Below are positions 95 to 6,006 of a DNA stretch of 6,800 bases, piece after piece (positions within the stretch are counted from its first letter, which is position 1; each line of letters opens with the position of its first letter). The stretch comes from a virus. Lineage: Duplodnaviria; Heunggongvirae; Uroviricota; Caudoviricetes. Location: IMG/VR virus record IMGVR_UViG_2740892422_000007; one strand, given 5' to 3'. The notes under the pieces were generated by a model that saw nothing but the letters and a program-made list of their open reading frames with translations, was not told where the DNA came from and did not search any database. The position numbers and the translations under genes are program-made.

Positions 95-656
95 GCCATT
101 CAATATCCGGTGCAGTTGATGTATCAACACGGTTCAGCAACACCCGATACTTTTTCCAGGCTTCCAGCAACAAGGTTTCTTCCTCCGTTGCGATCTCCAG
201 ATCCACAGCATCCTGAAGCGGCGCTATATGCTCACTGGCTATCTGCATCAGGCTGTTTTTTGTTTCTTCCGCCTCCCGGATCCGGAACAGTTTTTCTGCT
301 TCCGTATCCTTCACCCAGGCTGTGCCGTTCCACTTCTGATATTCCCCTCCCGGCGATAACCAGGTAACATTTTCCGGTAACGGACCGAGTTCAGAAATAA
401 ATAACGCGTCGCCGGAAGCCACGTCATAAACCGTTTTACCCCGATGATCTTCAACGAGATGCCACGATGCCTCATCACTGTTGAAAACAGCCACGAAGCC
501 TGCCGGAATATCTGGCGGTGCAATATCGGTACTGTTTGCTGGCAGACCTGTATGAGGCGGAATATATGCGTCACCTTCACCAATAAATTCATTAGTTCCG
601 GCCAGCAGATTATAAATTTTTATGGTCCGTGGTTGTTCACTCATTCTGAATGCCAT
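90..656 (-). CDS. tfa: Tail fiber assembly protein Tfa (lambda-like), 188 aa, 3' end truncated by IS1
   Basis: ORF-track translation [48 protein letters not shown] matches lambdoid Tfa proteins from memory. The start overlaps the stf stop (TAATG on the minus strand at 654-658). The last native codon is W (96-98); the final R codon (93-95) and TGA stop (90-92) are supplied by the IS1 end. Confidence 0.88.
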
Positions 657-896
657 TACGCAAGCCTCACAATATAGTTAAATGCGATGTTTTTGACGGT
701 GTTTTCCGCGTTACCAGCAGCGTTAACGGTGATGGTATGTCCATGTGAACCAATCGCAACGGAGTGCGTATGAGCACCAATACCGACAGTATGTGCGTGT
801 GCACCTGCGCTTGCAGCAGTACCCGATACAGAGTGCGTATGAGCGCCTGCAGAAGAAGTGTTAACACTGTATTTAGAATAATCAGGTGATCCACTT
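656..896 (-). pseudogene. stf: Side tail fiber Stf, C-terminal ~80 codons only; 5' portion deleted
   Basis: The C-terminal 80 residues of track ORF 656..1132 read [81 protein letters not shown], with the repeated G(A/S)H(T/A)H motif and a terminal [11 protein letters not shown] typical of lambda Stf. The upstream 78 residues of that ORF are an out-of-frame read across the terminase fragment. No start codon or RBS exists for this fragment. Confidence 0.8.
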
Positions 897-1799
897 CCAG
901 ATCCCGGTCTTTTCGCAGATATAACGGGCATCAGTAAAGTCCAGCTCCTGCTGACGGATGACGCAGGCATTATGCTCACAGAGATAAAACACGCTGGAGG
1001 GATCATCCGGCATCCATTTGAGGCCAAACGGCGTCTCTTTGTCGCCAAATTTAAGGTACTGCTCCTTCCCGCAGTGCGGGCAGGCAACATGAAAACGCAT
1101 AAAATGCGGGGATTCACTGGCTGCACGCTCAATCTGGCAGGTGCCTCTCACTTTGGGCGTGGAGCCACGGATGGATTTTGGCCAGACAGAGCCTTCAATA
1201 CGCTTATCGCCCAGGAACGTCGGAGAGCCTTCCTGTTCAATATCCTCATCAAAGGCAGCAAGTTCATCATAACCCGCCACATCCACTGACTTTTCACGGT
1301 AGTTTTTTGCCGCTTTACCGCCCAGGCACCAGAAGCCACGCCCATTGGTGAAACGCTTCATGGTGAGCGTGTTATCCCGGTGCTTTTTGCCATACCACGG
1401 GGCCAGCGCCAGCAGCGAAGGAATATCACGGATGGTCGGCTCAACGTGGGTTTTCATAAAGTTCTCGGCATCACCATCCGTCGGCAACCAGATAAGTGTG
1501 TTGCGCTGCTTATGCTCTATGAAGTAGGCATAAACACCCAACAGCATTTTGGAATAACCAACACGGGCAGACTTCACCACATTCACCTCGCGGATGTAGT
1601 CGCTGCCCATCGCATTCATGATGGCCCGCTGAAAGGGCAGTGTTTCCCAGCGCCCTTCCTGGTATGCGGATTCTTTCGGGAGATAGTAATTGGCATCCGC
1701 CCATTCAACGGCGGTCTGTGGCTCCGGCCTGAACAGTGAGCGAAGCCCGGCGCGGACAAAATGCCGCAGCCTGTTAACCTGACTGTTCGATATATTCAC
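882..1799 (-). pseudogene. A: Terminase large subunit gpA, N-terminal 301 codons fused to 4 junk codons (KWIT) and a stop; nuclease and portal-binding C-terminal domains absent
   Basis: Translation MNISNSQVNRLRHFVRAGLRSLFRPEPQTAVEWADANYYLPKESAYQEGRWETLPFQRAIMNAMGSDYIREVNVVKSARVGYSKML is near-identical to lambda gpA from memory. Similarity ends after ...YICEKTGIW (codon 301, about base 897). Full-length gpA is about 641 aa. The 5' end overlaps nu1 by 26 nt, as in lambda. Confidence 0.88.
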
Positions 1800-3560: not shown

Positions 3561-3734
3561 TCAGATTAAATTAATCTTGACATCATAGCTTTCAAGACCC
3601 GTCATTTTTTCCCGTGCGGTAAACTGAATACTGGTAACTTCTTTCCCGGTCTTTTTCTTAAGTTCAATAATTTTTTTTGTTATATATTCAGAAATATCTG
3701 CTTCTGCTTTTATTTTTAAGTTTTCAATATTCAT
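3561..3734 (-). CDS. Gns-family small protein (GnsA/GnsB-like), 57 aa; absent from the supplied ORF track
   Basis: Hand translation of the minus strand: MNIENLKIKAEADISEYITKKIIELKKKTGKEVTSIQFTAREKMTGLESYDVKINLI, then TGA at 3561-3563. Start ATG at 3732-3734 is preceded by AAGAGGAAA. Length and the REKMTGLESYDVKI segment match GnsA/GnsB as recalled. Confidence 0.7.
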   Translation of the reverse strand: MNIENLKIKAEADISEYITKKIIELKKKTGKEVTSIQFTAREKMTGLESYDVKINLI

Positions 3735-3905: not shown

Positions 3906-4061
3906 TCAACTCAAGAGCCTTATTGCTGCTTCCAGAATTTCTTCTGAAGTAACATGTCGATCCGCGGCTACATAAATGACTTTATGATCTCCGGTCAGAG
4001 ATGGAAACCCTGCGGCCATTACAGTAAGGTGTGTTTTTTCGCCATTTGGATATTCACGCAT
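3906..4061 (-). CDS. Small hypothetical protein, 51 aa from the ATG at 4059-4061 (MREYPNGEKTHLTVMAAGFPSLTGDHKVIYVAADRHVTSEEILEAAIRLLS); in-frame extension possible to ATG 4134-4136 (76 aa) or the track's TTG at 4176-4178 (90 aa)
   Basis: Track ORF 3906..4178, which starts at TTG inside the cspI terminator hairpin, so that start is unlikely. The internal ATG at 4061 has GGAG about 11 nt upstream. The segment 4100-4136 contains A7 and T8 homopolymers. No family recognised. A 51-aa size fits the small ynfN-type gene found between gnsB and cspI in Qin, but that is memory of gene order only. Confidence 0.4.
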   Translation of the reverse strand: MREYPNGEKTHLTVMAAGFPSLTGDHKVIYVAADRHVTSEEILEAAIRLLS

Positions 4062-4180
4062 GATGGTGTTAACTCCAGTCATCGCTGGCACTACCACTGC
4101 TGGTTCAGAGTTAAAAAAAACTATGATTTTTTTCATGATGTTACCGTAGTATGTGAGTATCCATCGAATAGACACCAAGC

Positions 4181-4200
4181 AAAAAAGCTCCCGAAGGAGC
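4181..4200 (-). terminator. Rho-independent terminator downstream of the cspI-like gene
   Basis: GC stem GCTCC / GGAGC with CGAA tetraloop at 4187-4200. On the minus strand it is followed directly by TTTTTT (plus A6 at 4181-4186). On the plus strand it is followed by an interrupted T-rich run, so it may act in both directions. Confidence 0.55.
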
Positions 4201-4407
4201 CTTCATTTTCACTTTTTTAAATCCAACGACAGACGGCTGGCATTTAAGTATTGTGAAATATTATCAAATGTAATCATCATTGATTTACAAAAGATACATT
4301 TTGCCCCGAAAGGATTCATGTCAGAAACATCAAAAGATGATGTTCTATACTGGGAACCATGACAACACGGGCATCTAAAGTGAATATGGTTTGTAATATT
4401 GTCTACC

Positions 4408-4620
4408 TCAAAGCGCCACTACATGAACAGCGGCAGGACCTTTAGGTCCGTTCTCAATACCAAATTCAACTTCCTGATTCTCAGTTAATGTTTTGAAATC
4501 GTTGCTCTGAATTGCTGAGAAATGGACAAACACATCTTTGCTGCCATCTTTCGGCGTGATGAAACCAAAACCTTTTTCAGGGTTAAACCATTTCACTAAA
4601 CCAGTCATTTTGTTAGACAT
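4408..4620 (-). CDS. cspI: CspA-family cold shock protein, 70 aa, CspI-like
   Basis: Translation [70 protein letters not shown] carries the RNP1-like KGFGFI and RNP2-like VFVHF motifs. The [14 protein letters not shown] variant and the lysis-gene neighbourhood match Qin CspI as I recall it. Start context AAAGGTAATAATT-ATG resembles the cspA leader. Confidence 0.85.
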
Positions 4621-4735
4621 AATTATTACCTTTTGAAGAAATTAGCCCTTGGGCAGAATGGTCCGAAAAAAAATATCAGAGAGAAAAACCAACAAGGAAA
4701 TCTCAAGAGGTACAAATAATAAAATTATAACAATG
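4621..4735 (-). promoter_or_regulatory. Candidate cspI promoter (extended -10) and roughly 100-nt AT-rich 5' leader
   Basis: Minus-strand TGTTATAAT (plus 4724-4732) is a TGn-TATAAT extended -10. A long leader is characteristic of cspA-family genes. No experimental support. Confidence 0.4.
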
Positions 4736-4982
4736 ACTGCTTCAGATAAATTTGTAACAAACCAGAACACCATTAACGCATGATTAACCACCCATAGCAA
4801 GGATTACTTTTGTAAAGAAAAACACAGCAATGAAAGAATAGCTTTATTTATTAATAAAACGTGTCATTCTGATTAAGACCTTTTATCTTACCCTTAAGAT
4901 TTCAGGAATTTTGGCTCATGGAAGAGTCCTTTTTATTTAAATTTTACATTCCGCGATGTAAATGTTCCGATTTAATATTACC

Positions 4983-6006
<1,024 letters not shown>

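Follow-up and report, generated by a model that had tools for sequence, protein, structure and literature searches.

ynfN in a Qin-Type Prophage of Escherichia coli: a Probable 76-Residue Gene of a Cold-Shock Cassette with a Frameshift Hotspot

The small minus-strand ORF studied here lies in a 6,800-nt stretch of viral DNA (IMG/VR record IMGVR_UViG_2740892422_000007), herein referred to as the window. This ORF is very probably ynfN, a gene that encodes 76 amino acids from ATG 4136, carries a mutational hotspot in a run of eight T residues (T8), and belongs to a conserved gene cassette. With the same high confidence, which applies jointly to gene identity, gene model, cassette membership, and this point, a one-base contraction of the T8 run inactivates ynfN in Escherichia coli K-12 and, independently, in other lineages. 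ynfN is an already named, ordinary gene; what changes is its gene model, together with a clearer view of its genomic setting.

Identity and Genomic Setting of the ORF

The ORF is hosted by a Qin-type cryptic lambdoid prophage of E. coli. Genes found on the minus strand of the window include essQ, ydfR, rrrQ (lysozyme), rzpQ, cspI, a ymcF-like gene (ynfQ), ynfR, ynfN, and gnsB. Beyond gnsB lie ydfO and ynfO on the plus strand and then, again on the minus strand, the gene for the terminase small subunit, a fragment of the terminase large-subunit gene, and tail-fiber remnants. Coordinates of the features around ynfN are given in Table 1. Additionally, a terminator-like site was found after gnsB, at positions 3534-3513.

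A large internal deletion at the terminase/tail-fiber junction identifies the prophage as defective. Here, the large-subunit fragment (882-1799, minus strand; 305 codons, without the C-terminus) abuts a tail-fiber remnant (656-1132, minus strand). The end point of this deletion differs from that of K-12, where nohA alone remains. Elsewhere in the window, an ORF for an rzoQ-type Rz1-like lipoprotein with an LTSC lipobox (5033-5305, minus strand) is embedded in another frame inside rzpQ, the expected spanin arrangement, and a full-length match to the Rfam family IS009 (RF02111, 221.5 bits) was found inside the tail fiber assembly gene tfaQ (115-313, minus strand).

Table 1. Features of the ynfN region, with positions in the window
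Feature	Position	Strand	Description and evidence
gnsB	3561..3734	-	RefSeq; 171 nt past the ynfN stop
ynfN CDS	3906..4136	-	76 codons and TGA; PHROG 3425, RefSeq, homologs, dN/dS, AlphaFold2
Internal GGAG (4076-4073) and ATG 4061 (Met26)	4059..4076	-	Start annotated for the 51-aa K-12 protein; not ancestral
T8 run	4120-4113	-	Val6-Phe7-Phe8, GTT TTT TTT; recurrent frameshift hotspot
A7 run	4133-4127	-	Lys2-Lys3 and first base of Ile4; seen in the sequence
ynfR	4141..4206	-	21 codons; RefSeq; TAA stop 4 nt before the ynfN ATG
TTG of the 90-aa version	4176..4178	-	Not a conserved start
Terminator-like hairpin inside ynfR	4181..4204	-	AAGGCUCC-UUCG-GGAGCUU, then U6
ynfQ	4209..4397	-	YmcF-like CxxC...CxxC small zinc-ribbon protein, 62 codons; Pfam YmcF-like, E 7e-32; RefSeq
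cspI CDS (4408-4620) with cspA-type thermoregulator leader	4381..4766	-	Rfam RF01766; likely source of the ynfN transcript

An earlier note on this DNA, made from the sequence alone, had assigned the ORF to no recognizable family. It is, however, a named gene: in a search of 5,426 complete E. coli genomes with a 701-nt query, the ORF region was annotated as ynfN ("protein YnfN") in 2,147. The RefSeq protein is likewise named YnfN (e.g., WP_000720960.1), and the 76-aa form matches PHROG 3425 over positions 1-76 of 76 (E 7.2e-54, 180 bits). A different family, PHROG 4911, is a 51-residue model that matches YnfN residues 26-76 only; the window copy falls outside it, keeping an intact T8 run and a frame open from ATG 4136. 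DNA that is 100% identical to this ynfN was found in many E. coli genomes and in the phages Tritos and PhiR42_1. Identical or 93%-identical copies are carried by the viable lambdoid phages Tritos, PhiR42_1, 2H10, mEp460, and HannyBb. In the viable phage mEp460, the 231-nt ynfN is located between the lysis genes and the right genome end, with the same cassette layout as in the window. The gene is still counted among the uncharacterized E. coli genes in a recent review (PMC11551758).

Homologs of ynfN were analyzed in 46 species-level loci, and the codon-level comparison covered 41. The loci belong to Citrobacter, Raoultella, Klebsiella, Kluyvera, Scandinavium, Enterobacter, Phytobacter, Yokenella, Trabulsiella, Siccibacter, and other genera. 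A ymcF-like gene is located directly upstream of the ynfN homolog in 36 of the 46 loci, a same-strand csp gene upstream in 37, and gnsB downstream in 17. The order csp, ymcF-like, ynfN is the most conserved feature of the family, and both upstream genes are present in the window. The conserved cargo cassette, in which ynfN is third and gnsB often follows, occupies the interval from the lysis genes to the terminase end of the phage.

Certain database contigs with this region carry unexpected names. The E. coli Qin region recurs with 100% identity in a contig (L003) of a "Veillonella parvula" MAG, and a Scandinavium-like cassette is found on a contig (L030) from a "Chryseobacterium sp." assembly; both contigs are probably mis-binned or contaminants.

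Start Codon of ynfN

Three in-frame starts, TTG 4178-4176, ATG 4136-4134, and ATG 4061-4059, precede the stop codon TGA 3908-3906 on the minus strand. Reading of the sequence confirmed all three as previously described, together with the N-terminus MKKIIVFF encoded through the A7 and T8 runs and the internal GGAG motif. The ambiguity of the start that had been pointed out is also real in public annotation, where YnfN has 51 aa in K-12 and 76 aa elsewhere. RefSeq gives a 231-nt ynfN in strain HS and flags the K-12 copy as "frameshifted". In the alignment, K-12 has T7, as compared with T8 in the window and in HS. The upstream frame of K-12 stops after 14 codons (MKKIIVFLTLNQQW), and the K-12 annotation begins at Met26 because of this shift.

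Homologs strongly support the start at ATG 4136. The species-level proteins have 74-78 aa, every one starting at the equivalent ATG, and codon 1 is ATG in all 41 compared genes. Since the protein is conserved across the Enterobacteriaceae, the ORF is far beyond chance. Residues K3, F7, F8, and N9 are invariant, the N-terminal strand M-K-K-[VI]-[IL]-V-F-F-N is present in YnfN of the window, and the N-terminus is unchanged even in members with 25-34% identity. In moderately divergent pairs, codons 2-25 have a dN/dS of 0.13 and codons 26-74 one of 0.09; codons 2-25 are therefore protein-coding. In most relatives, GGTG, GGTGA, or GGAG is found 3-7 nt upstream of the equivalent ATG, and in E. coli and Citrobacter there is GGT alone, with 6-nt spacing. 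The check by conservation and dN/dS that the earlier note had proposed thus gave a reading frame conserved from ATG 4136, contrary to the absence of conservation that was to speak against the gene. Frame-disrupting variants of ynfN do exist, K-12 included. No tagging, proteomics, or ribosome profiling of the 76-aa YnfN in a T8 strain was found.

The earlier note had leaned toward the 51-aa protein from ATG 4061, which is also the product in the K-12 reference annotation, and had credited this version alone with a plausible Shine-Dalgarno sequence. The GGAG at 4076-4073 does exist, but its spacer to ATG 4061 is 11 nt, as compared with the usual 5-9 nt, and a weak GGT core is present before ATG 4136 at the ideal spacing of 6 nt. 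Other points in favor of the short protein are the match of the 51-residue model PHROG 4911, the existence of 51-aa entries in protein databases (P0040 and P0043), and the fact that this is the sole sizeable ORF remaining in T7 strains. However, codon 26 is Met in only 8 of the 41 homologs (Arg in 17), purifying selection on codons 2-25 is as strong as on the rest of the gene, and residues 2-28 contribute three of the five strands of a confidently predicted fold. RefSeq, moreover, treats the K-12 gene as frameshifted and gives 231 nt elsewhere. Conservation, dN/dS, predicted fold, and RefSeq all favor ATG 4136 in the window, and we regard the 51-aa product as very improbable. The 90-aa version from TTG 4178 is scarcely credible: no stop interrupts the frame from 4202 onward and TTG can serve as a start, but the open frame upstream of the ATG ranges from 0 to 59 codons in relatives, where a stop often abuts the ATG, the PHROG 3425 match begins only at residue 15 of this version, and the extension overlaps, in another frame, ynfR, whose protein has been detected.

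Homopolymer Runs in ynfN

The length of the A7 and T8 runs was counted with megablast queries of 90-92 nt, for which the band of at least 99% identity is reached by exact matches only. In the group of K-12-type alleles (1,572 records), A7/T8 was found in 1,040 records, T7 in 416, T9 in 2, A6 in 3, and A8 in none. The T7 records of this group are mostly K-12 laboratory derivatives, with some animal isolates. Among them, CFSAN064036 carries T7 in a prophage with an intact terminase and with lysis proteins unlike those of K-12. For the HS-type allele, which is 7% divergent, 572 records included 436 with T8 and 32 with T7, the latter all from natural isolates. In one of these strains, VCSW8, the deletion was confirmed in the T run on the HS-type allele, and RefSeq marks the gene as frameshifted.

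These T7, T9, and A6 variants in complete genomes bear out the earlier suggestion that the runs are prone to slippage. The change from T8 to T7 arose at least twice, since it is present on both K-12-type and HS-type alleles. Some homopolymer-length variants in public assemblies may be sequencing or assembly errors, but the T7 of K-12 is not one, being found in hundreds of independent assemblies. In total, about one-fifth of the genomes with the region, mostly K-12 laboratory strains, have a homopolymer frameshift, which means that ynfN is dispensable under many conditions. Another route of decay was seen in E. coli NZ_CP063332.1, where IS1 lies within the 701-nt cspI-ynfN region and the match is split by an IS1A transposase gene.

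In the 43 intact copies compared at the species level, T runs reach 8 residues in 18 copies, 7 in 6, 6 in 13, and at most 5 in 6. The runs encoding Val-Phe-Phe range from T2 to T8 in relatives, which use GTG TTT TTT, GTT TTT TTC, GTC TTC TTC, and other codon combinations. Because Val-Phe-Phe is conserved while its codons vary, selection acts on the amino acids and the T run is a by-product. T8 looks like a by-product of Val-Phe-Phe codon choice and a mutational hotspot, rather than a selected switch.

In the mRNA, the A7 and U8 runs can pair into a 10-bp A-U hairpin that covers the UG of the AUG (4105-4140, minus strand), with an energy of -4.0 kcal/mol at 37°C and -8.3 kcal/mol at 15°C. This hairpin was considered as a cold-responsive element and rejected: it follows automatically from the Lys-Lys...Phe-Phe codons, of which it is probably the mere result, and it is gone where relatives use TTC or AAG.

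Neighboring Genes and Expression

Two genes absent from the earlier note, ynfQ and ynfR, are located between cspI and ynfN. The genes ynfQ and ynfN share a frame and are separated by two TGA codons (TGA-AAA-TGA). Rare ORFs of 154-156 aa that fuse YmcF and YnfN were observed in metagenome contigs (P0061, P0063, P0065, and P0070). In RefSeq, the first codon of ynfQ is ATT (ATT ACA AAC...), and the preceding GAGGT overlaps the cspI stop codon.

The gene ynfR begins 2 nt past the ynfQ stop and runs through a terminator-like hairpin. Tagged YnfR of K-12 is strongly increased after cold shock (PMC6001520). In the HS-type allele, carried by about 570 complete genomes, ynfR is cut to 12 codons by a TAT to TAG change (L002:3420-3458), and a tblastn search for ynfR gave no match outside Escherichia/Shigella-type loci. 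ynfR may therefore be a young or dispensable ORF. Translational coupling to ynfR was rejected as a general mechanism for ynfN, ynfR being Escherichia-specific and truncated in HS-type alleles.

The hairpin has a 9-bp stem, a UUCG loop, and a U6 tract, with a free energy of -12.4 kcal/mol, and thus resembles a Rho-independent terminator, its GC-rich stem-loop being followed directly by a U-tract. It had previously been described as the cspI terminator with TTG 4178 inside it. The hairpin does not, however, directly terminate cspI: ynfQ intervenes between the two, and ynfR is translated through the hairpin. The TTG lies outside it, since the stem-loop occupies 4204-4183 and the T6 tract 4186-4181, and the TTG begins 2 nt past the tract. 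A GC-rich hairpin followed by a T-run, with other stem sequences, was found at the equivalent position in Citrobacter, Raoultella, and Klebsiella and in the chromosomal cspG-ymcF locus; it is missing in Scandinavium and Kluyvera, and some homologs are devoid of both the hairpin and the csp/ymcF neighbors. Covariation is modest: in 4 of 12 sequences, one pair of the stem is changed from UA to CG in a compensatory manner.

A promoter scan between the hairpin and ATG 4136 found none; the 45 nt available are too few, and a separate ynfN promoter within them is unlikely. Across the cspI leader, in contrast, the cspA-type thermoregulator RF01766 was matched at 4381-4766 with 112.8 bits, as compared with a gathering score of 78. 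Published data from K-12 show that the RNAs of these genes change together. Under AZT induction, cspI, ynfQ, and ynfN were increased 6.5-, 5.9-, and 5.8-fold, and their SspA dependence was 38-, 42-, and 51-fold, respectively (PMC11228462). In long-term stationary phase, log2 changes were 2.61/5.82/3.76/2.01 for cspI and 2.01/5.59/3.92/2.16 for ynfN (PMC7406224); a cspI deletion has a phenotype in competition during this phase (PMC7406224). Full-length YnfR can be made only by read-through, because its coding sequence spans the hairpin. From the RNA co-variation and the induction of YnfR, it seems reasonably probable that ynfN is transcribed from the cspI promoter by read-through of a leaky terminator.

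Csp proteins have known antitermination activity. Given this general property, Csp-mediated antitermination may aid read-through of the hairpin. Expression of ynfN could then be pictured as follows. Transcription would be driven by the cspI cold-shock promoter with its thermoregulator leader, and the polymerase would pass the conserved but leaky hairpin into ynfN, possibly helped by Csp antitermination. Translation would initiate at ATG 4136 from the weak GGT core with its 6-nt spacing. Ribosomes that end ynfR 4 nt upstream may assist in K-12-type alleles, an arrangement that is not conserved.

Predicted Fold and Function of YnfN

The 76-aa YnfN was modeled by AlphaFold2 with an alignment of 97 sequences (pLDDT 90.7, pTM 0.78). 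The model contains strands at residues 2-7, 14-18, 24-28, 34-45, and 51-58 and a C-terminal helix at residues 64-75. YnfN is thus predicted to be a compact soluble domain of five β-strands and one C-terminal helix. In the 51-aa form, strands one and two would be missing, along with most of strand three.

No match was found in Pfam, NCBIfam, or PADLOC for the 90-, 76-, or 51-aa forms, and Pfam gave nothing above threshold for ten remote members of the family. When all PDB sequences were searched with a profile, no hit fell below E 0.75, and no fold analog of the YnfN model was found among PDB or viral structures. In a profile search of 1.84 billion representatives, just 55 were found at E ≤ 0.001, nearly all of them with 70-80 aa; the few long remote hits match short repeated stretches and were set aside as apparently spurious. 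No report of a ynfN phenotype was found in the literature search. In this respect, the searches agree with the earlier note, which had called the gene one of the least explained pieces of cargo in the window. Our tentative suggestion, which we hold as a possibility only, is that YnfN is a small binding or accessory protein acting with CspI and the YmcF-like protein in cold or other stress. A far more elaborate proposal, in which YnfN represents a structurally new family and a dedicated partner of CspI and the YmcF-like protein, gated by Csp read-through together with T8 slippage to give YnfN-on and YnfN-off lysogens, is highly improbable.

Alternative Roles of the Runs and of the Gene

The T8 run, together with A7, could in principle be a selected contingency switch that turns ynfN on and off by reversible slippage, or a site where transcriptional slippage tunes its level. 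The runs do vary by both contraction and expansion (T7, T9, and A6), with variants in two allele backgrounds, and more species have T8 than any other length (18 of 43 copies). Thus, the recurrent tract-length variation of a contingency locus is present, but maintenance of the tract among homologs is not: 25 of the 43 copies have T7, T6, or interrupted runs. For classical phase variation, a tract of eight A/T bases is also short. Shifted copies account for only about 2% of genomes (37 of 1,728) once the K-12-type T7 group is set aside, and loss-of-function mutations are expected anyway for a gene in a decaying cryptic prophage. We therefore consider a selected switch quite unlikely and retain the reading of T8 as a mutational hotspot.

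Another role may be sought in the gene downstream. Published work describes ymcE-gnsA as a toxin-antitoxin pair and GnsAB as toxins whose partners are strictly upstream. By analogy with this pair, YnfN would be an antitoxin or another neutralizing partner of GnsB. ynfN does lie upstream of gnsB on the same strand, as the published partners do, and gene lengths match between both cassettes. However, YmcE and YnfN have no detectable protein or DNA similarity: BLASTP of the two proteins gave no alignment at E ≤ 100, and DNA and translated comparisons of ynfN and ymcE did not rise above shuffled controls. Homology of the two genes, for which patches in a pairwise MAFFT alignment had been considered, was rejected after these patches failed to beat shuffled controls. 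The 171-nt gap between ynfN and gnsB also differs from the overlap of ymcE and gnsA, no gnsB was found within 3 kb downstream in 29 of the 46 ynfN homolog loci, and K-12 and VCSW8 pair a frameshifted ynfN with an intact gnsB. An antitoxin role is accordingly unlikely, and we keep to YnfN as a possible accessory protein of the cassette.

Implications for ynfN Research

Under the 76-aa gene model, the K-12 entry "YnfN, 51 aa", which is in wide use, is the tail of a frameshifted gene, and K-12 knockouts, expression constructs, and proteomics searches for YnfN hit a remnant. Strains with T8, such as HS or ATCC 8739, are better material for ynfN work. The phage-carried cold-shock cassette (csp, ymcF-like, ynfN, and gns), with its internal terminator, provides a testable setting for Csp antitermination and is also useful for studying the function of several uncharacterized small proteins. 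The confident predicted fold, which has no analog, makes YnfN a reasonable target for structural and interaction studies. Nothing in the ynfN data points to a new mechanism.

Comparison with Known Systems

In recurrent contraction or expansion of an A/T run by one base, with a shift of the frame, ynfN resembles homopolymer frameshift pseudogenes and contingency loci. It differs from contingency loci in that its tract is short and unconserved among homologs, with no sign of selection as a switch.

The gene bor of phage lambda exemplifies the position of lambdoid "moron" cargo, between the lysis genes and cos/terminase. Like lambdoid morons, the ynfN cassette has Rz on its upstream side and the terminase small subunit on its downstream side, and it has its own stress-responsive promoter in the lysogen. 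Unlike morons of the bor type, it has a cold-shock content and no outer-membrane or virulence gene.

A further comparison is with the chromosomal cspG-ymcF-ymcE-gnsA cold-shock locus of K-12. Both loci have homologous csp, ymcF, hairpin, and gns elements, and both gene order and gene lengths are equal. In the cspG locus, however, the slot of ynfN is filled by ymcE, a gene without sequence relationship to ynfN that overlaps its neighbors on both sides, and the interval is about 195 nt as compared with 472 nt in the window. ymcE (231 nt, the same length as ynfN; L133:5072-5302 in the K-12 cspG locus) has an overlap of 26 nt with the 3' end of ymcF and one of 11 nt with gnsA, and it also spans the conserved terminator hairpin. 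It seems that the cspG locus either lost the ynfN slot of the ancestral cassette or had it replaced.
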